In this document: piece after piece, positions 651-59,811 of the stretch | Position numbering within the stretch: position 1 is the first letter of the stretch | How the letters are laid out: each line of letters opens with the position of its first letter | Assembly (NCBI GenBank): GCA_031290885.1 | Contig: JAISLQ010000006.1 | Location: 39,639-103,638, forward strand | Reading direction: 5' to 3' | Origin: Acidaminococcales bacterium | Lineage (GTDB): Bacteria; Bacillota; Negativicutes; Acidaminococcales; JAISLQ01 | Length of the DNA stretch: 64,000 nt | The notes under the pieces: generated by a model | The model's database searches: none | What the model saw: the letters and a program-made list of their open reading frames with translations, nothing else | What the model was told of the DNA's origin: nothing | Made by a program: the position numbers and the translations under genes

Positions 651-950
651 TCAGGCGCCGCCCCCTTCCATGACGCGCGCTACCAGATAGCCGCCGCGAA
701 AGCGCTCGGGCGCGTTGGCCAATGCCTCCTCCTGCGTCAGGGGCGTCCCCGCGACGTCCTCGCGCATGACATTGCCGTAGGGCAGCACCTGCGCGGTCGG
801 CTCCACGTTTTCCGTGTCAAGTTTGCCGAGCATGCCGGCGTAGCCGAGAATGTCATTGAACTGCCGGACAAAAAGCTCCAAATTTTCCTCCGGTATCTCC
901 AGCCTGGCCAATCTGGCTATGTACTGAACTTCCTGCGCGCTTACCTTCAT
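651..950 (-). CDS. gatC: Glutamyl-tRNA(Gln) amidotransferase subunit C
   Basis: The 99-aa ORF MKVSAQEVQYIARLARLEIPEENLELF...VMREDV has typical GatC size and N-terminus. An AGGAGGG RBS lies upstream, and its stop adjoins the gatA start. Confidence 0.9.
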   Translation of the reverse strand: MKVSAQEVQYIARLARLEIPEENLELFVRQFNDILGYAGMLGKLDTENVEPTAQVLPYGNVMREDVAGTPLTQEEALANAPERFRGGYLVARVMEGGGA

Positions 951-1288
951 GGTTATACGCCCTCCTAAACTTGTCTTTAAATTTGCCCGGCGGCCGCCGC
1001 AAAAAAAACAAAAAGCGCGCGCTGCCGCAAAAACGGCGCGCCCTCGGCGGACGGCGGCGTGATTGCTTTAAGTATTATATCATAAATCGTCGCGCGTGAT
1101 AACCACCTGCTTTTTGGCCTTTATTAATATTAATGCAAAAGATATTGCGAGCTTCATGAATAATAATTCCGCGCAAGGCGATGAAAACGAATTTGCTTCA
1201 AGTTGTTTTTTACGGCTTTTATTTTCTATATTTGCTATATTAATATTATTATAAAAATTCTTTTTTTCAAATTTTTTATTTAAAACCC

Positions 1289-1318
1289 TTGACAATATTT
1301 TTTTATTTATAATATAAT
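1289..1318 (+). promoter_or_regulatory. Candidate sigma-70/SigA promoter for the DUF2294-like gene
   Basis: TTGACA at 1289-1294, an 18-nt spacer, then TATAAT at 1313-1318. It sits in a very AT-rich stretch about 40 nt upstream of the 1360 start. Confidence 0.5.
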
Positions 1319-1359
1319 AACGTATAAATAATACAGATGTTCGTTCTGAGAGGCCTGCA

Positions 1360-1713
1360 ATGAATGTCGAGGCTTTAGGCGGCGCACAGTTAAAGAAGAA
1401 GCTTTTCCGTATTTACAATGAAGTAAATAAAGATATTTACGGTTTCGGCGTAGTTGAAATTAAAATTGACATAACTGCCGATTTTATAATGTTCTTTGGC
1501 AAGCACAACCGTGTGCAAGCCCTGAAAGTATTGGAAAAAAGATATATTGTTCTCAAGCAATCTGTTGACTATGCGCTTTTCCAAGAATTTAAGTTGCTTT
1601 TGCGGCAGAAACTTAACGCGGAGTTGGAGTTGTATCCAGCAGCTATTTTGAGGGATTATGAAACCAGCTCGCAAATCGCCGTTACAGTAGTTGTCTTGGG
1701 GAATAATTTATAA
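1360..1713 (+). CDS. Small cytoplasmic protein, DUF2294-like (function unknown)
   Basis: The ORF is 117 aa. Its length and the alternating hydrophobic pattern (..IYGFGVVEIKIDITADFIMFF...LKQSVDYALFQEFKLLLRQKL...ILRDYETSSQIAVTVVVL) resemble my memory of DUF2294 proteins. It has its own promoter and terminator and is markedly AT-rich relative to its neighbours. Confidence 0.5.
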   Translation: MNVEALGGAQLKKKLFRIYNEVNKDIYGFGVVEIKIDITADFIMFFGKHNRVQALKVLEKRYIVLKQSVDYALFQEFKLLLRQKLNAELELYPAAILRDYETSSQIAVTVVVLGNNL

Positions 1714-1760
1714 AAAATGCAATGATGACTGTTTTTATAGCGTTTACGTTATGGGAAAGT

Positions 1761-1810
1761 CGTTATTAATACCGGTTAATCCCGGGTTTTAATAACGGCT
1801 TTTTGTTTTT
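1761..1810 (+). terminator. Rho-independent terminator after the DUF2294-like gene
   Basis: CGTTATTAA (1761-1769) pairs with TTAATAACG (1789-1797), followed by GCTTTTTGTTTTT. Confidence 0.6.
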
Positions 1811-1885
1811 GGCGGACGCCCGGCAACACGCCGCAATGGGAAAACAGGCAAAATGTTGCGTTATTTTTGACAAAGGAGCTTTGCC

Positions 1886-2455
1886 ATGCGCGTGGTAGTC
1901 GGCATAACCGGGGCGAGCGGCGCTGTCTATGCCTGCGCCTTGCTTGGCGCTCTCAACAGCCTGAATATTGACCTGGAGATTGTAGTGAGCGAAATGGGAC
2001 GGCGCGTGCTTTCGTATGAGTGCTCTGCCGGACTGGATGATTTAGCCCGATGGGGCGCGGTACACGACAACAGCGACCTTTTTTCGGTATTGGCCAGCGG
2101 TTCCGCAAAGTTTGACGCCATGGTGATAGTCCCCTGCTCCGCGAACACCTTAAGCGCCCTGGCCAACGGGCTCGGCGGCAGCTTGCTTTTGCGCGCGGCT
2201 TCCGTCGCGCTCAAAGAAAGGCGCAATCTTATCGTGGTGATGCGGGAAACTCCTCTAAACCTTATAATTGTTGAAAACATGGCGGCGCTGATAAAAGCCG
2301 GGGCGCTTATCCTGCCGGCGTCGCCGGGATTTTACACGCGGCCCGTAGAAATATGGCAGCTTGTGGGCGGCATAGTAGGGCGGATAATTGACAATCTCGG
2401 CATAGATCATGCTTTAGGCGAAAGGTGGACGGGCGGTGAATACAATGAGCCGTGA
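1886..2455 (+). CDS. ubiX: Flavin prenyltransferase UbiX (prFMN synthase)
   Basis: The 189-aa ORF carries MRVVVGITGASGAVYA, VIVPCSANTLSALANG, LKERRNLIVVMRETPL, PGFYTRP and a C-terminal ERWTGG. These are co-linear with E. coli UbiX motifs (GISGASGA, LKERRPLVLVPRETPL, PAFYHRP, RWQG). Confidence 0.9.
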   Translation: MRVVVGITGASGAVYACALLGALNSLNIDLEIVVSEMGRRVLSYECSAGLDDLARWGAVHDNSDLFSVLASGSAKFDAMVIVPCSANTLSALANGLGGSLLLRAASVALKERRNLIVVMRETPLNLIIVENMAALIKAGALILPASPGFYTRPVEIWQLVGGIVGRIIDNLGIDHALGERWTGGEYNEP

Positions 2456-3785
2456 TTTGCGCGGATTCTTGCTCAAACTGCAAGACAGCGGCCTTTTGCG
2501 CCGTGTAAAGAGGCGCGTCAGCTCTCAATATGAAATAGCCGCGCTTTTAAAGAACACCAAAGGCGAGATGCCGCTATGTTTTGAACAGGTAGACGACTAC
2601 AATTGTCCGCTGGTCGCCGGCATCGGCGGCACCCGCGAGTTGATGGCGCTGAGCGTGGGCGTTTCTCCCTGCGCTTTGCCGGAAGCTCTGGCTATGGCAA
2701 TCGCGGCGCCTTTGCCGGTGGAAACGGTCGTGTCCGCGCCTGTGCAGGAGCACGTGATAAAAGCGCCTTTTAACCTTGACGAGCATTTCCCTGTGTTAAG
2801 GTACAACCAGCTCGATCCGGCCGGATTTTTAGTCTCCGGCGTAATGGTAGCAAAATCCGTTTCCGGCGAGAAATTTTACACATCGATCAGAAGGATGCAG
2901 TATCTCGGCAAAAACCGCAGTTGCCTTTTGGTTACTTCTTACGAGATGCGAAAACAAATAAGCCGTTATGAGGAAATAAAAGAGCCTATGCCGGTAGCGT
3001 TTATGTTTGGCGTCAGTCCGGCGGTGGTTTTGGCGTCGCAGATAAGCACGCATTATTATAATGCCGATAAATTCGCGGTAACCGGCGCGCTTTTGGGAGA
3101 AAATAGCCGGACCGTAAAATGCCGGACGGTTGATTTGGCGGTTCTGGCAGACGCGGAAATGATCCTTGAGGGAAATCTTTATCCTTGGCGCAGAGAAAAA
3201 GAAGGCCCTTTCGGGGAACTCGGCGGTTATTACGGCGAAGTATCCGAGCAGCCGGTGGTGGAATTTAGCGCGCTTACTTTTCGAGACAATCCGATCGCGC
3301 AGACGATCTTGGCCGGAAGCTGCGAAGAAAAGCTGCCGGAGGCGATAGCGCGCGAAGTCGCGTTGCTGGCTGCGGTCAGTCAGACCGTGCCGTGCGTCAA
3401 GAAGGTGAACGTAACCATGGCGGGCGCGGGAAGGTTTCACGCGATCATACAACTTGACAAGCAAACCGGCGCCGACGGCAAACAGGCCCTATTGTCGGCG
3501 TTCAGCGCGGACAAGGATTTGAAACATGCGGTTGCGGTGGATATGGACGTAGACATTTTCAGCCCCGAAGACGTGGAATGGGCCATAGCCACCAGAGTGC
3601 AGGCCGATCAGGATGTTTTCATAATCTCCGGCGCCATGGGTTCGCCGCTGGATCCATCCCATCTTTTGCGGGGCGTAAGCGCAAAAATGGGAATAGACGC
3701 CACAGTGCCGATCGGCGGCCGCGGTTACGCCCGCACTCATATACCGGGCGAGGAGAATACGAATATCGAAGATTATATATCATGA
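2436..3785 (+). CDS. UbiD-family (prFMN-dependent) decarboxylase, substrate unknown
   Basis: The ORF is 449 aa. It has the N-terminal DLRGFLLKLQDSGLLRRVKR typical of the UbiD family and the metal/prFMN motif EGPFGELGGYYG. It overlaps the ubiX 3' end. The start is either GTG at 2436 or ATG at 2445. Confidence 0.85.
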   Translation: MNTMSRDLRGFLLKLQDSGLLRRVKRRVSSQYEIAALLKNTKGEMPLCFEQVDDYNCPLVAGIGGTRELMALSVGVSPCALPEALAMAIAAPLPVETVVSAPVQEHVIKAPFNLDEHFPVLRYNQLDPAGFLVSGVMVAKSVSGEKFYTSIRRMQYLGKNRSCLLVTSYEMRKQISRYEEIKEPMPVAFMFGVSPAVVLASQISTHYYNADKFAVTGALLGENSRTVKCRTVDLAVLADAEMILEGNLYPWRREKEGPFGELGGYYGEVSEQPVVEFSALTFRDNPIAQTILAGSCEEKLPEAIAREVALLAAVSQTVPCVKKVNVTMAGAGRFHAIIQLDKQTGADGKQALLSAFSADKDLKHAVAVDMDVDIFSPEDVEWAIATRVQADQDVFIISGAMGSPLDPSHLLRGVSAKMGIDATVPIGGRGYARTHIPGEENTNIEDYIS

Positions 3786-3800
3786 CGGCAGACGAAGGAG

Positions 3801-4094
3801 ATGGGCGCCGTGGCGGCGGGATTGTTGGAAACAAGGGGGCTGGCCGATGCTTTAGAGGCGCTCGATGCTATGCTGAAAGCTGCCGGCGTACGGCTATGCT
3901 TGATGAAACGGGTGGGCAGCGGCGTTGTTGCCATAGTGGTCAAAGGCGAGGTGGCGGCGGTGGAGGCCGCGGTAGAGGCCGGCGCGCGCAAAGTGTTGGC
4001 CGAGGGCGGGACATTGCTTTGTTCTTATGTCATCGCCAATCCTCATCCGGCATTGCGAAAATATCTGATTGGGGAGGCGAAAATAATTGAATGA
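3801..4094 (+). CDS. BMC-H shell protein (single Pfam00936-type BMC domain), divergent paralog 1
   Basis: The 97-aa ORF reads GLLETRGLADALEALDAMLKAAGV...KRVGSGVVAIVVKGEVAAVEAAVEAG...YVIANPHP. This matches the BMC-domain pattern (IET.G...A.DAM.KAA.V ... GSG ... GDV.AV.AA). The start may instead be GTG at 3810, because the GAAGGAG RBS abuts the 3801 ATG. Confidence 0.85.
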   Translation: MGAVAAGLLETRGLADALEALDAMLKAAGVRLCLMKRVGSGVVAIVVKGEVAAVEAAVEAGARKVLAEGGTLLCSYVIANPHPALRKYLIGEAKIIE

Positions 4095-4881
4095 GTTTGT
4101 GTCCGGAATAATAAGCGAATTGCTGTCGCCCGAGCATACGGGCGGGGAGATGCCGCCGCGCCCTAATTACCAGCGCGACAAAAACAAGAGGCGGACGGAA
4201 TGGGGAAACAATAACAAGCCGACCGGGCAAAGAGATAAATTTGCCGAAAACTACGCATTTTTGCGCCGTGCGGCTCTGACGCGCAATATACCGCCTTCGG
4301 TGGACGCGCCGGGCCTTAGGGCGGAAATCGCCGCGGCCGGCAGCCTTCCCTGGCGCGCGCTGATAATCGAGCAGCCAAGCGAATATTTGGCGCGCGATTT
4401 GAAACTGAGATGGAAGAATACGGACGCGATCGGATTGATCAAGGCGGAAACGGCCGGACTGTCCGCGTTGTTTGCCGTCGATGAGGCAATAAGCGCATTC
4501 GGGCTTACGAACAGCATATTCAGCTGCGATATTGAGCGCACGCAAAACTTGCATTTTTATTTCGCGGATGACAGCGCCACCGTGCGCAATGTCGTGGCAC
4601 GCTTCGCGCAAAAGGAAAACTTCAGCTTTTACATAGATGGCCTGCTGGTAAAGAAAAAGGTGTCCGCTTTTTTGAGCAGGTATATGAAAGTCAGCGCCCG
4701 CTTGCCGCTGGCAGCCCGGGAGTCGGTCGATGAATTGTCCATTTGGCCGAAGCTCAATAAATATTACACGGAAAACCGGGGCTGCCTTATAAATTTTAAA
4801 TTTGCAGCCGGCGCGCTTGTTGCCCAGGGGGACGAAGGAGAAATTTTAAAGGCGCTTGCGAGCGTAACCGGGGGGGCATGA
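4087..4881 (+). CDS. Uncharacterised 264-aa protein: N-terminal amphipathic helix, basic low-complexity linker and degenerate BMC-like domain(s)
   Basis: A TTG start at 4087 lies 9 nt after GGAGG (4073-4077) and overlaps the upstream stop. The N-terminus is MNEFVSGIISELLS, followed by PPRPNYQRDKNKRRTEWGNNNKPTGQRDKF. The middle segment AIGLIKAETAGLSALFAVDEAISAFGL...HFYFADDSATVRNVVARF aligns by eye to [26 protein letters not shown]...[18 protein letters not shown]. The C-terminal ALVAQGDEGEILKALASV is a second GD.G..-like motif. Its stop overlaps the next gene start in an ATGA. Confidence 0.6.
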   Translation: MNEFVSGIISELLSPEHTGGEMPPRPNYQRDKNKRRTEWGNNNKPTGQRDKFAENYAFLRRAALTRNIPPSVDAPGLRAEIAAAGSLPWRALIIEQPSEYLARDLKLRWKNTDAIGLIKAETAGLSALFAVDEAISAFGLTNSIFSCDIERTQNLHFYFADDSATVRNVVARFAQKENFSFYIDGLLVKKKVSAFLSRYMKVSARLPLAARESVDELSIWPKLNKYYTENRGCLINFKFAAGALVAQGDEGEILKALASVTGGA

Positions 4882-5165
4882 TTTTGCCTGGCAACGCTAT
4901 GGGTTTTATCGAAACGGTCGGTTACGCCGGCGCGCTTGTTGCGGCCGATTTCGCTTTGAAGAACGCGAACGTCAGGCTGGTAAAGATGGAACGGGTGATT
5001 GGAGCAAACAAGCTGCTGAGTCTGACCGTATGGCTGGAAGGCGAAGTGGCGGCCGTTCAGTCAGCGGTAGCTTCGGGAAAAACGGCGCTGGAGCAAAACG
5101 GCATGTTTGCCCGCGCACATGTCATACCCAATATGGACGCCGGCGCGCGCGCTTTATTCAAATGA
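4878..5165 (+). CDS. BMC-H shell protein, divergent paralog 2
   Basis: The 95-aa ORF reads MGFIETVGYAGALVAADFALKNANVRLV...ERVIGANKLLSLTVWLEGEVAAVQSAVASG...AHVIPNMD. This is a BMC-domain pattern with a longer, atypical pore loop. It is translationally coupled to the upstream gene through an ATGA overlap. Confidence 0.8.
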   Translation: MILPGNAMGFIETVGYAGALVAADFALKNANVRLVKMERVIGANKLLSLTVWLEGEVAAVQSAVASGKTALEQNGMFARAHVIPNMDAGARALFK

Positions 5166-5215
5166 TTGCAAAAACATAGATGCGCAAAAAAAGCAATAAA
5201 AGGGAGGAAAAGGAA

Positions 5216-5506
5216 ATGAAAGAAGCTTTGGGGTTAATTGAAACAAAAGGGCTGGTCGGGGCGATTGAAGCCGCCGACGCTATGGTCAAGGCGGCGAATG
5301 TGGAAATTACGGGCTATGAGAAAATTGGGTTCGGCCTTGTAACAATTATGATCCGCGGCGACGTCGGCGCGGTGAAAGCCGCTACCGACGCCGGCGCGGA
5401 CGCGGCCAGGCGGGTAGGGGAAGTTGTGTCCGTACATGTTATACCGCGCCCGCACAATGAAGTGGAAAAAGCCATTCTCCACTCCGCCGTCAAGCCCGAA
5501 GCCTGA
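5216..5506 (+). CDS. BMC-H shell protein, PduA/EutM-like canonical hexamer
   Basis: [85 protein letters not shown] is nearly co-linear with PduA. I chose the ATG at 5216, which follows an AAGGGAGGAAAAGG RBS. The ORF track begins upstream at 5180. Confidence 0.93.
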
Positions 5507-5544
5507 AAATGACCGTCCTGTAACCGGAATAAGCGGAGGGTGCC

Positions 5545-5808
5545 ATGAAAATAGGTCTTGTGATAGGTCAGGTCATCGCCACGCGCAAAGATGAAAAGTT
5601 AGTGGGCTGCAAGCTCTTGATAACGCAACCGTTAACGCCGGAGAAAAAACCGCGGGGAGAAACCGTCGTCGCGGTGGATTCCGTGGGCGCGGGAGTCGGG
5701 GAATATGTTCTTTATGTCTCCGGTTCAGTCGCGCCCAAAGCGCTGCGCGACTTTAATACGCCTATAGACGCGGTCATAGTCGGCATTATTGACAAAATAG
5801 AGTTGTGA
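5545..5808 (+). CDS. BMC-P vertex (pentamer) protein, EutN/CcmL/PduN family
   Basis: The 87-aa ORF MKIGLVIGQVIATRKDEKLVGCKLLI...VVAVDSVGAGVGEYVLYVSGS...PIDAVIVGIID matches the Pfam03319 pattern. A GGAGGG RBS precedes it. Confidence 0.88.
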   Translation: MKIGLVIGQVIATRKDEKLVGCKLLITQPLTPEKKPRGETVVAVDSVGAGVGEYVLYVSGSVAPKALRDFNTPIDAVIVGIIDKIEL

Positions 5809-5922
5809 AATGCCGCGCGTTCGGGAAACGGCGTGCGCCAATTTAAGCGGCGGGCAATTTTAAAGGTACAAAACTGTCCCTTAAAGGCCGAGAATATACC
5901 TGTGAGCTTGAAGGTGTGAAGA

Positions 5923-7770
5923 ATGAACGCTAATATAAACAAACGGGCGATACGCTTTCGCCGGATGATTGATACGCTATTGAGCGCGAACAAAAATGAG
6001 TGCGCCGACATAGTGCTGACCAACGGGCGTCTTGTAAATGTAATCACGCGCGAGATATATGCTGCCGATGTAGCGATCAAGGATGAATACATATTGCTGA
6101 CAGGCGATTGTTCCGGGGTTGCCGGCCCGCGCACCCGCATTATTGATTTATCCGGCGGATTCATCTGTCCCGGGTTCATTGACGCGCACATGCATTTTGA
6201 AAGTTCCATGCTTACTCTTTCCGAATTCAGTAAACTGTCGATCCTATCCGGCACGACCACTCTGATAGCGGATCCGCACGAGATAGCCAATGTAGCGGGC
6301 ATAGAAGGCATGCGCGCCATGATTGACGAAGCGGCCATGCTTCCTAATCGGATTCTTTTTACTATTCCCTGCATGGTTCCGGACGCTCCCGGGCTGGAAA
6401 CAGCCGGGGCCAGCGTAACGTCCGAAAACGTAGGGCTGCTCCTGGGACACGATTTGGTGCAAGGAATAGGCGAAATGCAGGGCTTTAGCAATGTAAAGCC
6501 GGTTTATGAACACGCGCCGTCGCTTATTGACGATTTATTGGCGAGCGTTTCTTTGGCTTCAGAGCTAAAAAAGACGGTGGAAGGCAACGCGCCCGGACTG
6601 TCCGGCCGGGATCTGGCGGCGCACATCCTGGCCTGCGGCGGCAACACTTCTTGCCATGAAACTACATCCAAGGCGGAATGTGTTGAAAAATTGAGAAACA
6701 ATATTACCGTGTTTATGCGCGAGGGTTCGACGCAAAAGAATATGGCCGAGTGCATAAAAGCGGTAACGGAAGACGGCCTGGACTCGCGCAAGTTGGTTTT
6801 GGCGACGGACGATATGCTGGCGCAGGATTTGCTTGATTGGGGACACATGAACGAGATTGTCCGAAGGACGATTGAGCAGGGCATCGATCCTGTGGAAGCG
6901 ATTCAAATGGCTACGATAAACGCCGCCGGGCATTTTGCTCTAAACGACATCGGGACGGTCGCGCCGGGGAAAATAGCCGATCTGGCGATTGTTGACGATC
7001 TTGCGAAAATGACGGTAAAAATGGTTTTGCTCAATGGCTCGGTCGCCGCCCGTGACGGCGAACTGCTACTTGCCATACCGCCCTACAAATACCCCGACCG
7101 TTTGAAACACACCATGCGCCGGGCGGACGTAAAATATGAAGATCTTTTTTGGCGGTCGGCTGAAGGCAACGAGAAAGTCGATGTGATAAAAGTCATTCCC
7201 AACCAAAACCTTACCGGCCGGGAGCAATGCGTCCTGCCGGTAAAAGACGGAATTATAGCGGCTGACCCCGGGCAGGACGCCATATATATTTTCGTTATAG
7301 AAAGACACGGCGCGGCCGGGCGGACAGGCAAGGGATTTGTCAAAGGGTTTGGGCTGGAAAAAGGCGCCATCGCTTTGAGCGTTGCGCATGACGCGCACAA
7401 TATAGTGGCTTGCGGCGTCAATTTGAATGACGTCGCGCTGGCGGCCAACCGGGTAATCAGAATGGGCGGCGGGGTCGCGCTCATTAACGAAAGCAAAGTT
7501 TTGGGGGACATGGCTTTGCCGGTAGCCGGCCTTATGACCGACGAACTGACCGGCCGCGAGGTTAGCGAAAAGATCGCCTCCTTGGAGCGGATAGCCGCCG
7601 AACAGCTTGGCTGCAAGCTGGCCGCGCCTTTTATGCACCTGTCTTTCCTGACGCTGGTAACCAGTCCGGAGCTGAAAATAAGCGACAAAGGGATGTTAGA
7701 TACGGTAAAACATGAGTTTTTGCATGGCGCGGAAAAAATTCCGCCCGAGCCGTTTATTTTAAAATCATAG
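5923..7770 (+). CDS. Adenine deaminase-family amidohydrolase (Ade-like; true substrate uncertain)
   Basis: The ORF is 615 aa. ADIVLTNGRLVNV...CPGFIDAHMHFESSML...GTTTLIADPHEIANVAG...GIGEMQGF...APGLSGRDLAAHI...SCHETT...FMREGSTQKNM is co-linear with the adenine deaminase family as I recall it. The segment before APG reads EGN, where I recall GH in canonical enzymes. Confidence 0.8.
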   Translation: MNANINKRAIRFRRMIDTLLSANKNECADIVLTNGRLVNVITREIYAADVAIKDEYILLTGDCSGVAGPRTRIIDLSGGFICPGFIDAHMHFESSMLTLSEFSKLSILSGTTTLIADPHEIANVAGIEGMRAMIDEAAMLPNRILFTIPCMVPDAPGLETAGASVTSENVGLLLGHDLVQGIGEMQGFSNVKPVYEHAPSLIDDLLASVSLASELKKTVEGNAPGLSGRDLAAHILACGGNTSCHETTSKAECVEKLRNNITVFMREGSTQKNMAECIKAVTEDGLDSRKLVLATDDMLAQDLLDWGHMNEIVRRTIEQGIDPVEAIQMATINAAGHFALNDIGTVAPGKIADLAIVDDLAKMTVKMVLLNGSVAARDGELLLAIPPYKYPDRLKHTMRRADVKYEDLFWRSAEGNEKVDVIKVIPNQNLTGREQCVLPVKDGIIAADPGQDAIYIFVIERHGAAGRTGKGFVKGFGLEKGAIALSVAHDAHNIVACGVNLNDVALAANRVIRMGGGVALINESKVLGDMALPVAGLMTDELTGREVSEKIASLERIAAEQLGCKLAAPFMHLSFLTLVTSPELKISDKGMLDTVKHEFLHGAEKIPPEPFILKS

Positions 7771-7779
7771 GCGCGGCCT

Positions 7780-8502
7780 GTGATTTGCGTGAAAGCGGGG
7801 ATTGCCGTGGACTATGAAATTATAGATATATCACAGGAAATTTACCAGGGAATGCCTGTTTTTTTCCCGCATCAGCCAACGATGATTTTCCCTAACGTAA
7901 GCCATGAGGAAAGCCTGCAAAAAATGGGTTTTATGTTTGCCACCAACAACCTGTTGCTCAGCGAACACGGCCCCACGCATACTGACGCGCCGTATGAATA
8001 TGACTTGAAAGGCGAGACAATCGACAGGCTTCCTTTGGAAAAGTTTTTTGGCCAAGCTTTTTGCGTTGATTTAAAACATATCGGCGAAGATAGTTTTATT
8101 GGCAAGGAAGATTTGCGGCATGCGTTGGAAAAAGCAGGCTACAAAATCACCGGGGGCGACATTTTGCTCATGCACACAGGGCATTTTGCGCGCAATTACG
8201 GCACTGACAAGTGGCTTGCAAACTACACGGGCCTAAATTACGAAGCGGCGGCATATCTTGCGAAAAGTGGCATAAAAATGATTGGCGTCGACGCGCCTTC
8301 GGTGGACAAAACCGGCGACATGAATTACTCCGCCCATAAAGCTTGCCGTGAATACGGCATGCTTAATACCGAGAACCTGTGCAATCTTGATAAACTTGTC
8401 GGCAAAAAATTTTTGTATATAGGCTTTCCGCTGCGAATAAGAAACGGCACGGGTTCTCCTGTCAGGGCAGTGGCGGTCATCGGCGGCGAAAGGAGGCCAT
8501 GA
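7780..8502 (+). CDS. Cyclase-family protein (kynurenine/aryl-formamidase or isatin-hydrolase-like, Pfam04199-type)
   Basis: The ORF is about 231-240 aa. It shows IIDISQEIYQGMPVF, SEHGPTHTDAPYEY (compare the HxGTHxDAPxH motif), ILLMHTG, IKMIGVDAPSVD and GMLNTENLCNLDKL. The start is uncertain, either GTG at 7780 or GTG at 7807. Confidence 0.75.
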   Translation: MICVKAGIAVDYEIIDISQEIYQGMPVFFPHQPTMIFPNVSHEESLQKMGFMFATNNLLLSEHGPTHTDAPYEYDLKGETIDRLPLEKFFGQAFCVDLKHIGEDSFIGKEDLRHALEKAGYKITGGDILLMHTGHFARNYGTDKWLANYTGLNYEAAAYLAKSGIKMIGVDAPSVDKTGDMNYSAHKACREYGMLNTENLCNLDKLVGKKFLYIGFPLRIRNGTGSPVRAVAVIGGERRP

Positions 8503-9119
8503 AGATGAGATTGAAAAAAGAAATAACCATAAAGCCCTATTCCGGCGCGGCGCTGGAAGTGCTGGAAGGGGAGGAGCTTTGCATAATTGATTTGCAGGGG
8601 CAGCAGGTAAGCGATTTTATCTGTTTCAATAAAGACGACCTAAAAGAACATGTTTCGCCCGTACATATGCGCTCGTCGCTCTCAAGCCTGCGCCTTAAAA
8701 TAAACGACTTGCTGTACAGCAATTACCGCTCCGGCATGATGAGGCTGATAGAAGACACCGTCGGCAGGCATGACTTTTTCTTTCCGGCTTGTGATTGCTA
8801 CAGGTATAAAGTGGATTTCGGCGTGGAAAATCATCCCAACTGTTATGATAACTTTATGAAGGCGCTGCGCGCATTCGGCATCCAGCCGGAAACCTTGCCC
8901 GATCCCATCAACTGGTTTATGTACAACGATGTGGACGAAAACGGCGATTATGCAATTCGGCCGCCGCTTTCCAAACCGGGCGATTATGTGCGGCTGCGGG
9001 CGCTCAAAAACTGTATTGTGGCTTGTACGGCCTGTTCACAGGATTTCGTGCCGGTAAACGGCATGAAGGTAACGATGATAAAATTGCAGATATTTAGCGC
9101 CTCTTCGCCAGGCCCTTGA
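8499..9119 (+). CDS. DUF1989-family protein (urea-carboxylase-associated / carboxyguanidine-deiminase-like fold)
   Basis: The ORF is 206 aa. It shows GAALEVLEGEELCIIDLQGQQVSDF, FFPACDCYRY, HPNCYDNFMKAL, PDPINWFMY and GDYVRLRALKNCIVACTACSQD. These match my memory of the DUF1989 (PF09347) pattern. It overlaps the upstream gene in an ATGA. Confidence 0.7.
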   Translation: MKMRLKKEITIKPYSGAALEVLEGEELCIIDLQGQQVSDFICFNKDDLKEHVSPVHMRSSLSSLRLKINDLLYSNYRSGMMRLIEDTVGRHDFFFPACDCYRYKVDFGVENHPNCYDNFMKALRAFGIQPETLPDPINWFMYNDVDENGDYAIRPPLSKPGDYVRLRALKNCIVACTACSQDFVPVNGMKVTMIKLQIFSASSPGP

Positions 9120-9550
9120 GCTTCTTCCCCCGGGGAAGGCTGGCCAGGCCGCCGGCCGATTTTTGCGGCACGGAATTCATCTGATTCTTCTTGAACCAAT
9201 CGCCAAGCCTATCCCCGTCCATTGTGCCGGCATATTGCCGCTTGCCCCGGCCGCAACAGCTTGCGCCAATCCCAAAGGCTTATTTTGGTTCGGCGAAGGC
9301 ATGTCCGGCTTTCTTGAATATAATCGCTCTTTTCCGATAGTCGTTGTTATAAACATATATAAAAGAAGGAGCGGCGGAAAAATGCGTGGGCTTTCGCGTG
9401 CGGCCGATACATGCGGCGGAAGAAACTTGGGGAGCGGATTTTGTTTAAGATTAAGTCCTTCTTCCGAAAGGGGTGATTATATCGTTAAAAATAGGCGGCG
9501 CAGCGGGTTTGCCTATCCGGACTTATAAAGAAAAATGGAGGAATGTGAAG

Positions 9551-10426
9551 ATGTTTACAGTTTTCAAAAAAAGTTTATGGTTGGCTTTGTTGACAATATG
9601 CATGCTTGTTATGGCAGCTGGCTGCGGAGGCGGCAATACCTCGTCTCCGGCCGCCAAGCCCGCCGCGCCGCAAGCGCCGGCGACCGGCATCCGGCCGCCT
9701 GACACGCTCACGGAAAAAGGCTACCTTACTTTTGGCACCATCTCAACCTTTCCGCCTTTTGAGTATATGAAAGACGGCAAACTGGTGGGTTTTGACGTGG
9801 ATTTGGTAGACGCTTTGGCCAAAGAGATGGGCTTGAAAGCAAAAAATACCGTCATGAATTTCGATGGGCTGATTCCCGCTTTGCAGGGCGGACGTTTTGA
9901 CATGATCGTTTCCGGCATGTACATCAAACCGGAAAGAAGAGAAATGGTCGATTTTATCGGCTATATGAAACTGAGCAATGTCATTGTTACCAGAAAAGGC
10001 GATAACAAAGGCATCAAATCAATGGATGATTTGTCCGGCAAAAAAGTAGCCGTGGTCAGAGCCGGCTATACCGAAATACTTTGCCGCGAACAGAACAAAA
10101 GGCTGGCGGAACTGAAAAAGCCTTTGATTGATATTTTGCTCCTGCCGACGGAAAACGATGTCGTCCTGGCGACCGAACAGGGGCGCGCCGATGCGTTTTT
10201 GCATTCGGCTCCCGGCGCGGCGCATTTGAGCGAACAAAAACCCAATGTTTTTGAAGTGCCCGTTACCATGCCGCCGAACGCGGAAATAGGCATAGCGACC
10301 CGCAAAGGCAATGACAAGACCCGGGCCGCGCTCGAAGCGGCGGTCAAAAAACTGGTCGCTGACGGCACTTATGAAAAACTCATGCAAAAATATCATTTGC
10401 CGCCGGAACTTAATTATTTCAAATAA
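9551..10426 (+). CDS. ABC transporter substrate-binding lipoprotein, polar amino acid (PBP family 3) type
   Basis: I chose the ATG at 9551, which follows an AAATGGAGGA RBS; the ORF track starts at 9473. It has a signal peptide with a lipobox (LVMAAGC). LTFGTISTFPPFEYMKDGKLVGFDVDLVDALAKEMGL...FDGLIPALQGGRFDMIVSGM is typical of His/Gln/Arg-type binding proteins. Confidence 0.85.
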   Translation: MFTVFKKSLWLALLTICMLVMAAGCGGGNTSSPAAKPAAPQAPATGIRPPDTLTEKGYLTFGTISTFPPFEYMKDGKLVGFDVDLVDALAKEMGLKAKNTVMNFDGLIPALQGGRFDMIVSGMYIKPERREMVDFIGYMKLSNVIVTRKGDNKGIKSMDDLSGKKVAVVRAGYTEILCREQNKRLAELKKPLIDILLLPTENDVVLATEQGRADAFLHSAPGAAHLSEQKPNVFEVPVTMPPNAEIGIATRKGNDKTRAALEAAVKKLVADGTYEKLMQKYHLPPELNYFK

Positions 10427-10543
10427 AAAAGCATGCTTTATAGTCTGCGTGCAACCGGCGCGGCGCGAAAGGGCCCGCGGCGGCCTGCCGCCAGGGACCT
10501 TTTGTGTCCGGGCGGGCGCGCTGTGGCGCGGGGAGGGTTGGCT

Positions 10544-11251
10544 TTGGACAATATAGTGAAATATGTTTTTTCGCCGCATTTTCTGATGGGGGCGGTCAAT
10601 ACGCTCGAGTTGTGCATAATGGCGCAGATAGCCGGAGTATTGATAGGTTTTCTGTTGGCTTTGGCGAAAACTTCAAGGTGCGGCGCGGTGCGGTTTTTCG
10701 CTGACGGGTACATCTGGCTGTTTCGCGGCATTCCCGTCTTGTTGCTGCTTATTTTTGTATATAACGCGCTGCCGCAATTCGGCATCAGGCTCGATGAGTT
10801 TAAGTCCGCTTTAGTGGCCCTTATGTTCAACGAAGCGGCGTACATGGCGGAAATAATACGTTCCGGGCTTAGTTCCGTGGGCGCGGAGCAGCAACGGGCC
10901 GGTTACGTCCTCGGTTTGACAAAGTTTCAAATAATGCGCTATATTACCATGCCACAGGCTTTACGGGTAATAATACCGCCTACGGCCAACCAGTTTATCG
11001 GAATGCTCAAACTTTCGTCACTGGCGTCGGTCATTGGCTTCGGAGATTTACTGCTGGTCGCCCAGCAGGTGGCGGGCGAGAATTTTGACTATGTTAATAC
11101 GCTGGTGGCGGTGGCCGTATATTATCTTGTTTTTACCGCAATTTTTACTGTTGTGCAGATATTTTTGGAAAAGAGCATGGATATTTCGCGCAAAGCAAAA
11201 TATGCGGCGGAAAAAGCGGGAAAGAACGCCCAAGACATCGCGGCGGCGTAA
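10544..11251 (+). CDS. ABC transporter permease, polar amino acid type
   Basis: NTLELCIMAQIAGVLIGFLLAL...LFRGIPVLLLLIFVYNALP...FNEAAYMAEIIRSGL...ITMPQALRVIIPPTANQFI are HisM/GlnP-family motifs. The ORF track starts at 10433 with an Arg/Pro-rich, non-membrane N-terminus. I prefer the TTG at 10544, 6 nt after GGAGGG, but the start is uncertain. Confidence 0.8.
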   Translation: MDNIVKYVFSPHFLMGAVNTLELCIMAQIAGVLIGFLLALAKTSRCGAVRFFADGYIWLFRGIPVLLLLIFVYNALPQFGIRLDEFKSALVALMFNEAAYMAEIIRSGLSSVGAEQQRAGYVLGLTKFQIMRYITMPQALRVIIPPTANQFIGMLKLSSLASVIGFGDLLLVAQQVAGENFDYVNTLVAVAVYYLVFTAIFTVVQIFLEKSMDISRKAKYAAEKAGKNAQDIAAA

Positions 11252-11266
11252 CAGGAAATACAGAGG

Positions 11267-12016
11267 GTGATTTTGTTGAACGAGGATAAGTTGCTGCTGC
11301 GCGTTGACGGCGCCGGGAAAAAGTATCACGGAAATACTGTTCTGAAAGATGTTTACATGAGGATTAACCAGGGCGAAAGATTAGTGATGATCGGCCCTTC
11401 CGGTTCCGGCAAATCCACCTTGCTCCGTTGCATGGCCGGGCTGGAAAGGGTCGATGAGGGGTGCATCTGGTATGACGGGGGGTATATAGAAAATCTCGAT
11501 CTTAAAACCCGCGCCGAAATCGGCATGATCTTTCAGTCATTCGACTTGTTCCGGCATTTGACTGCTATAGAAAACATAATGCTGGCACCATTGAAAGCGC
11601 AGAAAAGAAAATATGACGAAGTAAAAAAATCGGCGCTGGCCTTGCTGGAAAAAATGCATTTGGCCGACCATGCGAACCATTACCCCATGCAGCTTTCAGG
11701 CGGCCAGCAACAGCGCGTGGCCATTGCCAGGGCTTTAGCCATAAATCCGCGCCTTATGCTCTTTGACGAGCCGACTTCTGCGCTTGATCCGGAAATGACG
11801 GCTGAAGTGCTTGACGTGATTATTGATTTGGCGCAAAGCGGCATGACTACCGTGATTGTAACGCATGAAATGGAATTTGCCAAACGCGTAGCCGACAGGG
11901 TAGTGTTTATGGAACAAGGCAAAATAATTGAAACAATCGCCGTTGGCAACATCAACGAAACTATCGCCGGCAATAAACGGATAAACCAGTTTTTCAACCA
12001 GATAACCCGTTATTAA
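11267..12016 (+). CDS. ABC transporter ATP-binding protein, polar amino acid (GlnQ/HisP-like)
   Basis: It has Walker [10 protein letters not shown], the signature [15 protein letters not shown], Walker [13 protein letters not shown] and the H-loop VTHEM. Confidence 0.9.
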
Positions 12017-12260
12017 AGCATTCTCGGCGGCAAGGACGGCAGACGAGCCCCCATGCCGTCCGGCGTACCCGCGCAGCAGAGATGTCGCCGCCGCCGCGCC
12101 CCAAAAACAAACTCGCCGCCCCTTTCTTCGCGGATGTTCCGGCAGCTGAGGCTGACGGAGCGCGATTGGCGGTTTCCGGCGGCGGCCGCAAAGCGGATGT
12201 TCGGCGGCTTCCCCAAAAAGCAGGTGTTCCCGGCAAGCCGCAAGGCTTGCTAATTGCCTC

Positions 12261-12956
12261 TTAGCTTTCTTTGACCTTTCCGTCCGTGGTCAATGTAACG
12301 ACTTGCCAAGGCAACAATTTGCCCGATTTTTTGAGCGCCGCCGCAGCGGCCCGCTCGATGCCGCCACAGCACGGGACTTCCATGCGGACAACCGTGACGG
12401 ACTCGATGTCGTTTTCGGCGATGATTTCGGCCAGTTTTTCGCCGCAATCCCCGCCGTCAAGTTTCGGGCAGCCTATGAGCGTGATTTTTCCCCGCATATA
12501 CCCGGCGTGGAAATTTGCCCGCGCGTAAGCGGCGCAATCAGCGGCGATGAGCAGGTTTGCCCCGTTAAAGTACGATGCGCCCGCAGGCGCGAGTCGGATT
12601 TTTACCGGCCATTGGCACAGCTCGCTTTCGCCGGGCGACGCAGGCCCGGCCGCCTTAGGCGTACGGGGCAGCGCGCGGGCGTTCAAGCCAGGGCAGCCGT
12701 CCGCGCGCCGATGTTGCATGTTTTTTATGTGCTTTTTGACCTGCTCTTCGTCATACGCCGCCGCTTCACGCTCCACAAAGGCAACCGCCCCTGTCGGGCA
12801 GGCCGGCAGGCAATTGCCAAGCCCGTCGCAGCAATCGTCCCGGAGAAGCTTCGCTTTGCCGCCCACCATCCCGATTGCCCCTTCATGGCATGCTTCGGCG
12901 CACAATCCGCACCCATTGCATTTACCGATGTCTATTTCAATGATCTTGCGCTTCAT
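12261..12956 (-). CDS. 4Fe-4S dicluster domain-containing protein
   Basis: I chose the ATG at 12956, which follows an AGGAGG RBS; the ORF track starts at 13061. The N-terminus carries CNGCGLCAEACHEGA and CDGLGNCLPACPTGA ferredoxin motifs. The C-terminal domain is Cys-rich (IGCPKLDGGD, VPCCGG). Confidence 0.75.
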   Translation of the reverse strand: MKRKIIEIDIGKCNGCGLCAEACHEGAIGMVGGKAKLLRDDCCDGLGNCLPACPTGAVAFVEREAAAYDEEQVKKHIKNMQHRRADGCPGLNARALPRTPKAAGPASPGESELCQWPVKIRLAPAGASYFNGANLLIAADCAAYARANFHAGYMRGKITLIGCPKLDGGDCGEKLAEIIAENDIESVTVVRMEVPCCGGIERAAAAALKKSGKLLPWQVVTLTTDGKVKES

Positions 12957-13069
12957 AAATTGCGCCTCCTGGTCTTTGGGAGTTGACTGCATTATGGCAT
13001 AATCGGCGATTCGGTTGCATTGCCAACGTAAGTGCCGGGCGTCCGGGCCGCCAAAGGGCAAGGCTTCCT

Positions 13070-14041
13070 TCAGCGCGAGCCGTTTTGCCCGCCGAATGAG
13101 CCCCTACGCAATTTTTCGATTATTTTGGCCATATCGTCAGGCATGGGCGCCGCAAACAGCATCTTTTCCCCTTGCCGGCCGCAAATTTCCAAACTTGCGG
13201 AATGAAGCGCCTGCCCCTTTATGGCAAAACCGTGCCGCCTTGGTGAATATTTGGGATCGCCGACGACCGGGTGGCCGATGTATTCCATGTGCGCCCTGAT
13301 TTGATGGGTGCGCCCGGTATCGAGCCGCAGGCGCAGCAACGCGTGGTTATGGAACTGTTCCAGCAGCCAATAATGCGTAACCGCTTCCCGTCCGCCTTTG
13401 GCTACCGCCGCCATTTTCTGCCGGTCTTTGGGGTCGCGCCCGAGCAGCGTCCGGACCGTGCCTTCCCGCACGGATACCGCGCCATGCACTATGGCGAGGT
13501 ATTCGCGCACGGCGGTTTTGTCGCGTATCTGCGCGGACAGGCTCAGATGCGCAGCGTCGTTTTTGGCCACTACCATTACCCCGGAGGTGTCTTTGTCCAA
13601 ACGGTGCACAATGCCGGGACGTATAAAGCCGTTTATCCCCGACAGCCCGCCGCAGTGGTAAAGCAGGGCGTTGACCAGCGTGCCGCCGTAATTGCCGGCC
13701 GCCGGATGTACGACCATGCCGCGCGCCTTGTCGACCACGATAAAGTCATCGTTTTGGTAAAGGATGTTTACCGGGATGTTTTCCGGTTCCACTTTTATCG
13801 GCTGCGGCGGCCGGTACTCAACGGCAAACGATTCGCCGCCGCGCAAACGGTAATTTTGCCTGATCGCTTTTCCGTCGGCGCGCACCAAACCGTCCTTTAT
13901 CATTTTTTGTATGTTGGCCCGCGAAAGCGCCAGGCTTTTTGCCAAAAATACATCCGCGCGCGCGTCCCGGTCATCCGCGCCCGCAGATACCGCCAGGGCA
14001 TCGGCGGCCGCCGTTATTTTTTGTTTTTCATCATGTTCCAT
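13070..14041 (-). CDS. rluD: 23S rRNA pseudouridine synthase, RluA/RluD family
   Basis: It has an S4-like N-terminus (RADVFLAK...SRANIQKMIKDGLVRADGK), the catalytic HRLDKDTSGVMVVAKN, and GRTHQIRAHM. The start at MEHDEK (14041) overlaps the lspA 3' end. Confidence 0.88.
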   Translation of the reverse strand: MEHDEKQKITAAADALAVSAGADDRDARADVFLAKSLALSRANIQKMIKDGLVRADGKAIRQNYRLRGGESFAVEYRPPQPIKVEPENIPVNILYQNDDFIVVDKARGMVVHPAAGNYGGTLVNALLYHCGGLSGINGFIRPGIVHRLDKDTSGVMVVAKNDAAHLSLSAQIRDKTAVREYLAIVHGAVSVREGTVRTLLGRDPKDRQKMAAVAKGGREAVTHYWLLEQFHNHALLRLRLDTGRTHQIRAHMEYIGHPVVGDPKYSPRRHGFAIKGQALHSASLEICGRQGEKMLFAAPMPDDMAKIIEKLRRGSFGGQNGSR

Positions 14042-14469
14042 AAAATACAACCGGCCCCTATGCAAATGGCGGCGTCGGCGACATTGAAAACCGGCCAGAC
14101 GCGAAAATCCAAAAAATCCACTACTTCGCCCGTATTTATCCGGTCGATCAGGTTGCCCAAGGCGCCGCCCGCAATCAGGCCGGCGCCGGCCAGGATGCAG
14201 GGCGGCTGCTTTTTGATGTGTTTCCGCAGGCCGAGCAAAAGCGCCAGCAAGGCAACGGCCGCCGCAACGAACAAAGCGCGCTGGTTGGGCAAAAGGCCAA
14301 AAGCCGCGCCAGGATTGAGTACATATGTTATGTGAAAAACGCCGTCAATGACAGGCACGCTCATGCCTTCCGTCATAACGCTTTTTATATAGCGTTTGCT
14401 GGCATAATCGGCGGCTACAATTATAAAAGGCAGAAAAACAAGCCGCACGGCAACCCCCCACGCTCCCAA
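14014..14469 (-). CDS. lspA: Lipoprotein signal peptidase (signal peptidase II)
   Basis: The 151-aa membrane protein shows YVLNPGAAFG, GGALGNLIDR and VVDFLDF..WPVFNVADAAI, which are hallmark LspA motifs. Confidence 0.9.
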   Translation of the reverse strand: MGAWGVAVRLVFLPFIIVAADYASKRYIKSVMTEGMSVPVIDGVFHITYVLNPGAAFGLLPNQRALFVAAAVALLALLLGLRKHIKKQPPCILAGAGLIAGGALGNLIDRINTGEVVDFLDFRVWPVFNVADAAICIGAGCILWNMMKNKK

Positions 14470-14528
14470 ACAATGCTAAACGAAGATACATGCTTAGAGG
14501 CCGCGAACAAACAACGCCGCCCGGCGCG

Positions 14529-16232: not shown

Positions 16233-17302
16233 TGTTTTTTCGCCCTTTCACGCAAAATATCGTTTATTTCTTTTAAAAGTTCGTCAAACAAAACGGCCTC
16301 CGGCACTTTGCGCAAAACGCGCCCCTTTTTGAACAGCAGCCCGGCGCCTTTGCCGCCCGCGATTCCAACATCGGCTTCACGGGCTTCGCCCGGGCCGTTC
16401 ACCACGCAGCCCATCACGGCGACGGTTATGGTGTCCTTTACGCCGGCCAGTTCATCTTCCACCCGCAAAGCCAATTTTTCCAAATCGATCTCCGTGCGCC
16501 CGCAAGTCGGGCAGGCGATGACCGTCGGCCCGTACGGGCGCAGCCCCAACGCCTTCAATATCTCGCGCCCCGCCTTTGCTTCCTCGACCGGATCGCCCGT
16601 CAAGGACACCCTGAGCGTATCGCCTATGCCCATCGACAAAAGGGCGCCTATGCCCACCGCCGATTTTATCAGGCCGCTTCTCGGCGTACCCGCTTCCGTA
16701 ATCCCGATGTGCAATGGATAGTCAGTCGCTTCAGCCGCCAGTTTATAGGCGTTTATGGTCAAGGGCGCGTCATGCGCTTTTAGGGAAAGTTTGATGTCCG
16801 TAAAGCCCCAGCCTTCCAGCAAGGCGGCGTTTCTAAGCGCCGCTTCGAGCAAGGCTTCCGGGCAGGGGCGCTCATATTTGCGCAAAATATCCGCCGGCAA
16901 AGAACCGGCGTTCACGCCTATCCTGATCGGCGCCCCGCGCGTTTTAGCCTTGTCCGCGACCCGGCGGACGTTAGCTTCTGCGCCGATATTGCCCGGATTG
17001 ATCCGCAGCCCGTCCGCCCCGGCGTCCAAGGCTGAAAGCGCCAGCCGGTAATCAAAATGGATGTCCGCGATCAGGGGCAGGGCGATCGCTTGCTTGATAT
17101 AGGGCAGGGCGGCGGCCGCCCGCTCATCCGGGACGGCGACGCGGACAATGTCGCAGCCGGCCGCCGCCAGCGCGTTTATTTGCGCGATGGTCGCCGCCGT
17201 CTCGTGCGTTTTGGTATTGGTCATGGACTGAACGGAGATCGGGGCGCCGCCGCCCACCAAAAGCCCGCCCAGCCTTATTTGCCGGCTTTTCCTACGCTGC
17301 AT
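16229..17302 (-). CDS. ispG: 4-hydroxy-3-methylbut-2-en-1-yl diphosphate synthase
   Basis: The 357-aa ORF shows [56 protein letters not shown] and CPTCGRT, followed by a [4Fe-4S] Cys motif. Confidence 0.95.
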
Positions 17303-56999: not shown

Positions 57000-57274
57000 A
57001 CATTGCCCCTATTTAATACTGTTCAAAGACTAAACCACGCTTTAAGATTCGCGGGGCAATTTAGCGTCCTGCGCGGCGCAAAACACAGGCGACCCCCCTA
57101 CGTTCGGCGAGGCTTCAGGACAAAGCGGGGCGGTAAATTGGCCGCAAAGACGGTACGGTTTTAATCTGATAGCAGCAAAAGCTATTTTATTTGACAAAAA
57201 CAGACGCATGGCCTATTTCAAGGCGCAAAAGGAATTTTTCAAATTCAGCCGTCATTAGGGCCGGAAAGCAGATT

Positions 57275-59805: not shown

Positions 59806-59811
59806 AACGCA

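Follow-up and report, generated by a model that had tools for sequence, protein, structure and literature searches.

A UbiX-UbiD gene pair next to the shell genes of a compact BUF1-type microcompartment operon in an Acidaminococcales genome

Introduction

Bacterial microcompartment (BMC) loci of the BUF type lack an aldehyde dehydrogenase and encode amidohydrolases, a deaminase, a carboxy-lyase and an isochorismatase (Axen 2014). The anaerobic degradation of xanthine by the clostridial route was proposed, on bioinformatic grounds, as the function of this locus, then named the xanthine-utilisation (Xau) BMC; the UbiD homologue Amet_4581 (XauD), 36% identical to HmfF of C. basilensis, was taken as the decarboxylase, some pathway steps were placed outside the shell, and no gene was experimentally assigned to the steps of the Rabinowitz pathway (Ravcheev 2019). 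The catalogue of Sutter 2021 contains 101 such loci (46 BUF1 and 55 BUF1B), some BUF1 members being devoid of the full gene set, with dedicated hidden Markov models (HMMs) for UbiD, Adenine_deam_C and cyclase; the purine-fermenting species Gottschalkia acidurici and G. purinilytica are represented in its shell-protein trees, as are Carboxydothermus SET and a Thermoflavimicrobium strain. Here, a locus of this type is analyzed in a stretch of 64,000 nucleotides (the window) of contig JAISLQ010000006.1, which belongs to a metagenome-assembled genome (MAG) of the Acidaminococcales (Negativicutes). The analysis is centered on two genes of the plus strand, ubiX and a ubiD-family gene (1886-3785), placed immediately before the shell genes.

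In the clostridial fermentation of purines, xanthine is converted successively to 4-ureido-5-imidazolecarboxylate, 4-amino-5-imidazolecarboxylate, 4-aminoimidazole, 4-imidazolone and formiminoglycine. To our knowledge, the genes of this fermentation have never been experimentally assigned, though its biochemistry has been known since the 1950s. The pathway calls for enzymes that decarboxylate 4-amino-5-imidazolecarboxylate, deaminate 4-aminoimidazole and hydrolyse imidazolone, and the enzyme families in the core of the locus are plausible suppliers of these activities, whereas the window holds no candidates for the first two steps. The PDU, EUT and GRM metabolosomes and the carboxysomes have homologous shell proteins, and share with the proposal made below the principle that a troublesome intermediate is made and consumed inside the shell. 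In contrast to them, neither an aldehyde dehydrogenase, phosphotransacylase or alcohol dehydrogenase, nor RuBisCO or carbonic anhydrase occurs among the products of the window operon, which has no diffusible cofactor that needs recycling. BUF1 belongs to the small number of microcompartment types outside both the carboxysome and the aldehyde paradigms.

The window locus is a compact BUF1-type operon with eleven genes (five for shell proteins and six for others), in the order: promoter, orf117 (MpsC-like), ubiX, ubiD, BMC-H, BMC-T, BMC-H, BMC-H, BMC-P, deaminase-like, cyclase, DUF1989 and terminator. Three of its shell proteins belong to PF00936 and one to PF03319, while the BMC-T was recognized by its predicted fold. 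The UbiD carboxy-lyase, an Adenine_deam_C amidohydrolase and a cyclase are encoded with the shell, and no aldehyde dehydrogenase (PF00171) was found among the proteins encoded within 1360-12016. In all this, as in the presence of UbiX and in the gene order, the window resembles BUF1/BUF1B. Order and orthology are shared, in particular, with the locus of Carboxydothermus islandicus SET and with a Thermoflavimicrobium locus (L013 and L005), which come from two of the genera named above. The differences are the lack of a PduM-like protein, a second amidohydrolase, an M20 peptidase, a permease and a formiminotransferase, the reduction of the isochorismatase to a pseudogene, the MpsC-like gene that opens the operon, and the Acidaminococcales host. 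The gene arrangement is thus not new, but that of a reduced member of a catalogued type in a Negativicutes MAG. An earlier note, made from the sequence of the window, had considered its two ideas on the purpose of a shell around such an enzyme unusual; a BMC locus with a carboxy-lyase and no aldehyde dehydrogenase had been described in 2014, assigned to xanthine in 2019 and catalogued as BUF1/BUF1B in 2021. The window adds no new type. What is new is a decarboxylase clade found only with shells, with a clean signature at the cofactor-metal site, and a hidden shell protein, predicted to be PduB-like, that may tether cargo. The reduced Acidaminococcales copy is also new. A conserved MpsC-like leader gene and a compact subtype without the PduM-like gene, whose eleven genes could be expressed as a whole, deserve mention as well.

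The reading that we favour, with a rough probability of 0.55, is that the operon forms a BUF1 compartment in which the UbiD protein makes 4-aminoimidazole from 4-amino-5-imidazolecarboxylate inside the shell, where the co-encoded hydrolases consume it.

The UbiX-UbiD gene pair

The ubiX gene (1886-2455, plus strand), with an AAGGAG ribosome-binding site ahead of its ATG, encodes a flavin prenyltransferase of 189 aa (TIGR00421, PF02441) that scored 185 bits with the UbiX model TIGR00421, the curated subfamily cutoff being 108.9. The gene of the UbiD-family decarboxylase (2436-3785, plus strand) encodes 449 aa if read from GTG 2436 and 446 aa if read from ATG 2445, which is the start in the public 446-aa protein P0001. 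It overlaps ubiX by 20 nt with the first start and by 11 nt with the second. Its product scored 296.5 bits with TIGR00148 (cutoff 244.85) and exceeded the cutoffs of the Pfam models UbiD_N, UbiD and UbiD_C. Its membership of the UbiD family is not in doubt, and its mode of cofactor binding may differ from that of other members, as discussed below. The UbiD stop codon (3783-3785) is separated from the ATG of the first BMC-H gene (3801) by 15 nt that include a GAAGGAG ribosome-binding site. The open reading frame map and the family scans agree in this with the earlier note, according to which the two genes overlap and directly precede the first shell gene. It had the pair leading the operon as well, which holds as to the location directly 5' of the shell genes, but ubiX and ubiD are the second and third genes, behind that of a 117-aa protein.

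A role of the UbiD protein in quinone biosynthesis was rejected on the scores obtained with equivalog HMMs: 134 bits with that of UbiD (NF008175, cutoff 788) and 142.5 bits with that of the menaquinone decarboxylase (TIGR03701, cutoff 495.9). The clustering with ubiquinone or menaquinone enzymes that would have spoken against a role in the compartment is, with scores so far under the cutoffs, not what is found.

The closest relative with a solved structure and a characterized activity is HmfF, the 2,5-furandicarboxylate decarboxylase of Pelotomaculum thermopropionicum (PtHmfF, PDB 6H6V; 40% identity, 330 bits), which belongs to the same short subfamily of about 448 aa. Residues 4-448 of the window protein align end to end with residues 1-447 of the 448 of PtHmfF, and therefore the UbiD protein has no terminal extension; the earlier note had likewise recognized no targeting extension on it.

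A UbiD clade linked to shell genes

A scan of one genome per species gave 80 loci encoding relatives of the UbiD protein, and ten further places were added by exact-protein look-ups. The presence and order of shell genes were judged by tblastn with the window proteins, as far as each contig reaches. Of 87 related loci compared, 22 encode a UbiD with 44% identity or more to that of the window, and every one of these has shell genes, in the same order UbiX-UbiD-H-T-H-H-P-deaminase-cyclase-DUF1989 (H, T and P being the genes of BMC-H and BMC-T proteins and of BMC-P); they come from Bacilli, Carboxydothermus, Bacillota MAGs and Brenneria. No shell gene was found in the 64 loci whose UbiD is at most 40% identical, from Alphaproteobacteria, Bathyarchaeia and others. 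The association of UbiD with the shell (22/22 versus 0/64) is far beyond chance. Close relatives devoid of BMC genes would have counted against the earlier note; instead, every close relative adjoins the same shell genes.

A neighbour-joining tree built from 91 sequences had the 22 UbiD proteins linked to shells as a monophyletic group in 100 of 100 bootstraps, split into two subclades that also had a support of 100 each. PtHmfF was the nearest outsider, joining the shell-linked clade in just 11 of 100 bootstraps, and the HmfF-like relatives in the sampled loci had no shell genes nearby. The possibility that PtHmfF itself is a BMC enzyme in disguise was discarded, as its position is outside the clade and its residue signature is that of the non-BMC relatives; Pelotomaculum was not found under BUF1 in the parts of the Sutter 2021 data that were considered.

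Gene calls spanning the whole block were retrieved for eight loci. The stretch from UbiX through DUF1989 is invariant in all eight, and in the loci with listed gene calls the gap from UbiD to the first shell gene is 12-40 nt. The other genes move: a second amidohydrolase (427-512 aa), an isochorismatase, an M20 peptidase and a Xan/uracil permease or Bmp transporter occur upstream, downstream or on the opposite strand. The isochorismatase is intact in 7/8 of these loci, the Brenneria copy being cut by the end of the locus. Since UbiD has a fixed place in an invariant core while other enzymes move around it, a core or signature role fits, in line with the initial view that its position is one typical of signature enzymes.

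One of the 22 loci deserves separate mention. In Brenneria sp. 4F2 (L001), an enterobacterial plant pathogen and genetically tractable host, a complete copy of the locus spans 9444-17178, adjoined by genes for a LysR regulator, a Xan/uracil permease, an M20 peptidase and an isochorismatase.

Whether UbiD acts inside the shell can be considered at this point. In 7/8 of the loci with gene calls, a gene for a PduM-like protein of 190-245 aa (with scores below the family cutoffs) lies between the third BMC-H and the BMC-P genes. The N-terminus of this protein matches the encapsulation-peptide HMM of BUF1B, the only one in the part of the Sutter 2021 set that was considered. An encapsulation peptide on UbiD was looked for and none was recognizable, the PduM-like protein being matched by that HMM instead. 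It could accordingly be argued that UbiX and UbiD are cytoplasmic and merely co-transcribed with the shell, and that a hydrolase whose gene lies downstream of the shell genes is the encapsulated signature enzyme. The lengths in the shell-linked clade (441-459 aa), which are like that of free HmfF, agree with this, as does the placement of some steps outside the shell in the published model (Ravcheev 2019). Against it, the UbiX-UbiD pair adjoins the first shell gene in 22/22 loci, while the enzymes presumed to act earlier are those that move, and the clade is specific to shell loci, with clade-wide changes at the surface and at the cofactor site. Furthermore, many BMC cargo proteins have no classical encapsulation peptide. 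Cytoplasmic location of the pair is thus considered distinctly improbable, and an encapsulated UbiD is preferred.

Catalytic and metal sites of the UbiD protein

The catalytic Arg/Glu/Glu set is intact in the window protein, where R153, E256 and E261 correspond to R173, E277 and E282 of Fdc1, and it is invariant in 22/22 members of the clade and in 121/121 close homologues. Both glutamates lie in the segment 256-267 (EGPFGELGGYYG). The EGPFGE..GYYG motif of the earlier note, taken there as the metal/prenylated-FMN (prFMN) motif, is indeed present, but EGPFGE contains these two catalytic glutamates and not the metal site.

In Fdc1 the canonical ligands of the Mn2+ ion that holds the phosphate of prFMN are N168, H191 and E233. 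None of them is conserved in the window protein, in which the aligned positions are Y148, E170 and K212. This mapping is based on the offsets of 20-21 residues between Fdc1 and the window protein on either side of the site (R173/R153 and E277/E256). The alternative of equating H191 of Fdc1 with the histidine position of the sequence GVHPAV (S194 in the window) was ruled out by the same offsets, which locate H191 at 170 and E233 at 212.

The substitutions separate the shell-linked clade from its relatives. At position 148, N or D is found in 69/69 non-BMC relatives, and Y or F in 22/22 members of the clade; at position 170, H is present in 60/69 of the former, while the 22 clade members have E, G, D or Q and never H; at position 212, E (69/69) is replaced by K (22/22). 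In addition, position 152, mostly H in the non-BMC relatives, is R in 22/22 clade members, so that an extra Arg152 adjoins the catalytic Arg153. Among the 121 closest database homologues, Y148 occurs in 120, R152 in 121 and K212 in 121. PtHmfF, in contrast, shares with the window protein the catalytic Arg/Glu/Glu and two arginines of the substrate site, but keeps the N/H/E metal ligands.

The swap at the metal site is not, however, unique to the BMC clade. Among the best 150 representatives of 50%-identity clusters plus the window protein, N or D at 148 goes with E212 in 101 sequences and a residue other than N148 goes with K212 in 28, few being mixed; of those 28, four are of the BMC-clade type (the window included) and some are only 29-40% identical to the query. 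In these alignments the 148/212 swap is strongly covarying and extends more widely than the shell-linked UbiD proteins. From the residues involved, it seems reasonable to propose that the shell-linked enzymes would hold the prFMN phosphate by Lys/Arg rather than by Mn2+. No report of a metal-independent UbiD was found in the literature searched. If true, metal-free cofactor binding would be of interest for the engineering of UbiD enzymes toward carboxylation.

Proposed pathway and its alternatives

According to the favoured reading, UbiX would make prFMN, which the UbiD-family enzyme would carry as a tightly bound cofactor. UbiD would decarboxylate a nitrogen-heteroaromatic acid, most likely 4-amino-5-imidazolecarboxylate, as in the model of Ravcheev 2019. 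The unstable product 4-aminoimidazole would thus arise inside the shell, only stable small products would leave it, and three co-conserved hydrolases would consume 4-aminoimidazole by deamination, ring opening and amidine hydrolysis. The earlier note had offered confinement of a reactive decarboxylation product as one of two purposes of the shell, and this agrees with the published xanthine model, with 4-aminoimidazole as the product.

The first of these hydrolases would be an adenine-deaminase-like amidohydrolase (5923-7770, plus strand; PF13382, PF01979), a candidate 4-aminoimidazole deaminase. Its score with TIGR01178 (468.3 bits) is just below the cutoff (472.5), and it is kept in all complete BMC loci; the deamination of 4-aminoimidazole would be an amidine hydrolysis like that of adenine. 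The second is a metal hydrolase of the cyclase family (7780-8502, plus strand; PF04199), recognized in the family scans and kept in related loci, which could open the five-membered lactam ring; isatin hydrolase and kynurenine formamidase are members of the same family. The third is a DUF1989 protein (8499-9119, plus strand; PF09347, 3.8e-50), a candidate amidine hydrolase acting on formiminoglycine, from a family that includes carboxyguanidine deiminase and the N-domain of trimethylamine N-oxide (TMAO) demethylase. As the core enzymes use only bound cofactors or metals, and water, no cofactor recycling in the shell would be required. The fixed core would start with the reaction by which the unstable intermediates arise, and this matches the purpose of a shell.

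Several points weigh against this reading. The roles given here to the deaminase-like, cyclase and DUF1989 proteins are not those of Ravcheev 2019, in which the cyclase and other amidohydrolases have different roles and the Ade-like and DUF1989 proteins are unused, both sets of assignments being drawn by family analogy. No assay of any BUF1 enzyme was found in the literature searched. The nearest characterized enzyme, PtHmfF, acts on a furan diacid and not on an imidazole. Since the three canonical Mn2+ ligands are replaced, ordinary binding of prFMN is not to be presumed, and UbiD displays no recognizable encapsulation peptide. Finally, the 64-kb window contains no candidates for the proposed upstream enzymes (ring-opening amidohydrolase and ureido-hydrolase), and no xanthine dehydrogenase, formiminotransferase or purine permease; with the upstream purine enzymes absent and the isochorismatase a pseudogene, the window does not account for a source of substrate in this organism.

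The relationship to PtHmfF raises the alternative that the compartment degrades some other imported heteroaromatic or nitrogen-rich acid, such as a furan, pyrrole, pyridine or another imidazole carboxylate, for which UbiD would be specific. E298 of the window protein aligns with the substrate-site His of PtHmfF, H296, which we take to form with R304 and R331 the triad that binds the second carboxylate; R306 and R333 of the window protein are kept. This hints at an altered second binding site, and Glu298, together with the location outside the HmfF branch, separates the window protein from HmfF proper. The absence of purine genes and purine permeases from the window, and the amino-acid-type ABC transporter encoded next door, also favour another acid. 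There is, however, no furfural-pathway context, and the invariant partners, from families of deaminase-like proteins, lactam/amide hydrolases and amidine hydrolases, point to an amino-substituted nitrogen heterocycle. A link to purines is provided by the Xan_ur_permease or Bmp nucleoside transporters that adjoin related loci, and classical purine fermenters carry BUF1 shell genes, while a terminator-like hairpin and a pseudogene stand between the operon and the ABC transporter. On balance, a different acid, for which there is most room in this genome with its missing upstream enzymes, is judged unlikely as the substrate, and 4-amino-5-imidazolecarboxylate is preferred.

The other purpose suggested for the shell in the earlier note was a carboxysome-like retention of CO2, with UbiD running in the carboxylation direction. 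UbiD enzymes are reversible and shells can slow the escape of gases, and nothing else speaks for it. The operon encodes no carbonic anhydrase, bicarbonate transporter, ATP-coupled enzyme or enzyme that would consume the carboxylated acid; the companions of UbiD are all catabolic hydrolases or deaminases, and the related loci have uptake permeases and further amidohydrolases. This idea is considered extremely improbable and is abandoned in favour of decarboxylation inside the shell.

Shell proteins

The shell genes, all on the plus strand, encode BMC-H 1 (3801-4094; PF00936, 6.8e-22), a divergent BMC-T of 264 aa (4087-4881), BMC-H 2 (4878-5165; PF00936, 2.2e-20), the canonical, EutM-like BMC-H 3 (5180-5506; PF00936, 2.5e-30) and the pentameric vertex protein BMC-P (5545-5808; PF03319, 5.7e-32). 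The 264-aa protein had no match in Pfam or NCBIfam, and word-indexed homologue searches gave only 3-4 relatives, so that its structure was modelled with AlphaFold from five sequences. Residues 1-85 were disordered in the model except for a helix at 3-13, while the C-terminal domain (86-264) reached a pLDDT of about 80-90. Foldseek matched the model to EtuB (3IO0, 6.5e-7), PduB (4I61) and EutL (3MPV), with probability 1.00 and E values from 6.5e-7 to 3e-4, and in hhalign the profile of the protein was collinear with a BMC-H alignment across the whole BMC domain (E 0.0016). Relatives fill the same slot in every locus, with identities of 18-27% apart from the closest one (P0122, also from Acidaminococcales, 81%). 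This gene, invisible to Pfam, is thus predicted to encode a tandem-domain BMC-T of the PduB/EutL/EtuB kind and, the fold being so predicted, the shell set is complete, with three BMC-H, one BMC-T and one BMC-P.

The likeness to PduB, EutL and EtuB concerns the predicted fold of residues 86-264 and, in the case of PduB, an N-terminal extension with a short amphipathic helix. The sequence, in contrast, is too diverged for Pfam and NCBIfam, and the protein and its relatives share an N-terminal helix of the form M(N/D)(E/K)FVxx(I/V)(I/V) and an invariant RPNYQRxK motif, the latter specific to this locus type. The N-terminus of PduB tethers the Pdu shell to its cargo. By analogy, the N-terminal helix and the RPNYQRxK extension of the BMC-T are probably the best candidate for a tether by which the cargo would be tied to the shell.

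Concerning BMC-H 3, its identity among the window MAG, Bacilli and Brenneria is 76-90%, against 49-68% for the enzymes encoded in these loci. This conservation and the range of GC content of the related loci (34-63%) suggest lateral spread of the locus.

The reduced Acidaminococcales locus

Compared to the full Firmicute set of BUF1 genes (isochorismatase, Xan/uracil permease, further amidohydrolase, and PduM-like protein with encapsulation peptide), the window is incomplete. Just 38 nt (5507-5544) lie between the third BMC-H and the BMC-P genes, with no PduM-like gene, and the second amidohydrolase, M20 peptidase and Xan/uracil permease are absent from the 64 kb. A remnant of an isochorismatase-family gene (9287-9525, plus strand) sits directly downstream of the operon; a frameshift and two in-frame stops interrupt it, and it breaks off near residue 106 of some 190. 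Taken together, these losses could mean that the locus is a decaying remnant with a pathway no longer working. On the other hand, none of the eleven genes between orf117 and DUF1989, these two included, is shortened, the promoter ahead of them matches the consensus perfectly, and the same architecture recurs in an unrelated organism. A metagenome contig of 34% GC (L088), on which the locus is covered from orf117 up to the beginning of the deaminase-like gene, agrees in the order orf117-UbiX-UbiD-H-T-H-H-P-deaminase, the protein identities being 65-88%, and likewise lacks the PduM-like gene (8373-8947 of that contig). This counterpart indicates purifying selection and a real, smaller subtype; the PduM-less form is not an artefact. 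Decay is regarded as very unlikely, and a working compartment is preferred.

A wider proposal brings these elements together. The shell-linked UbiD would bind prFMN without Mn2+, with Lys212 and Arg152 at the phosphate, and would decarboxylate 4-amino-5-imidazolecarboxylate in a compartment free of cofactor exchange. The orf117-led, PduM-less subtype of the window and L088 would be a working minimal version, whose supply would come from imported aminoimidazole carboxylate or from enzymes encoded elsewhere, and whose sole tether would be the N-terminus of the BMC-T. As a whole, this combination is put forward tentatively, as doubtful.

Leader gene and flanking regions

A sigma-70-type promoter-like site (TTGACA-18-TATAAT; 1289-1318, plus strand) lies upstream of the operon and is the sole 12/12 match to the consensus within 900-12600. 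The first gene of the operon, orf117 (1360-1713, plus strand), encodes a conserved small protein of 117 aa, distantly MpsC/DUF2294-like. The window protein itself had no Pfam, NCBIfam or PDB match, and its single-sequence AlphaFold model reached a pLDDT of only 60; an orthologue (L082) passes the Pfam MpsC threshold (25.1 bits versus 23). The gene stands upstream of ubiX in many BMC loci, among them the unrelated contigs L088 (34% GC) and L090, with identities of 72-73% in these two and 62% in L084. It is conserved at least as well as UbiD (68-74% in L088 and L090). Could its product be a regulator or a cofactor helper?

The probable end of the operon is a terminator-like GC-rich hairpin followed by a T-run (9138-9157, plus strand). 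The isochorismatase remnant separates it from the genes of a polar-amino-acid-type ABC transporter (9473-12016, plus strand), consisting of a lipoprotein substrate-binding protein, a permease and an ATPase, which matched no equivalog. The transporter was considered as part of the operon, which is unlikely in view of the intervening hairpin and pseudogene and of its absence from the other BMC loci; it is adjacent and probably a separate unit.

The remaining window is of housekeeping character (gatC, proS, ispG, dxr, uppS, pyrH, tsf, rpsB, leuS, comEC, ilvB, ispE and ilvA). At 57191-60795 lie the genes of a PRK09061-like amidohydrolase of 481 aa (score below cutoff), of a CbiM-like transporter component and of a hydrolase of the metallo-beta-lactamase fold, the amidohydrolase first. 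Judging from its identity of 25% to the second amidohydrolase of BUF1, the 481-aa protein is probably unrelated to the compartment.

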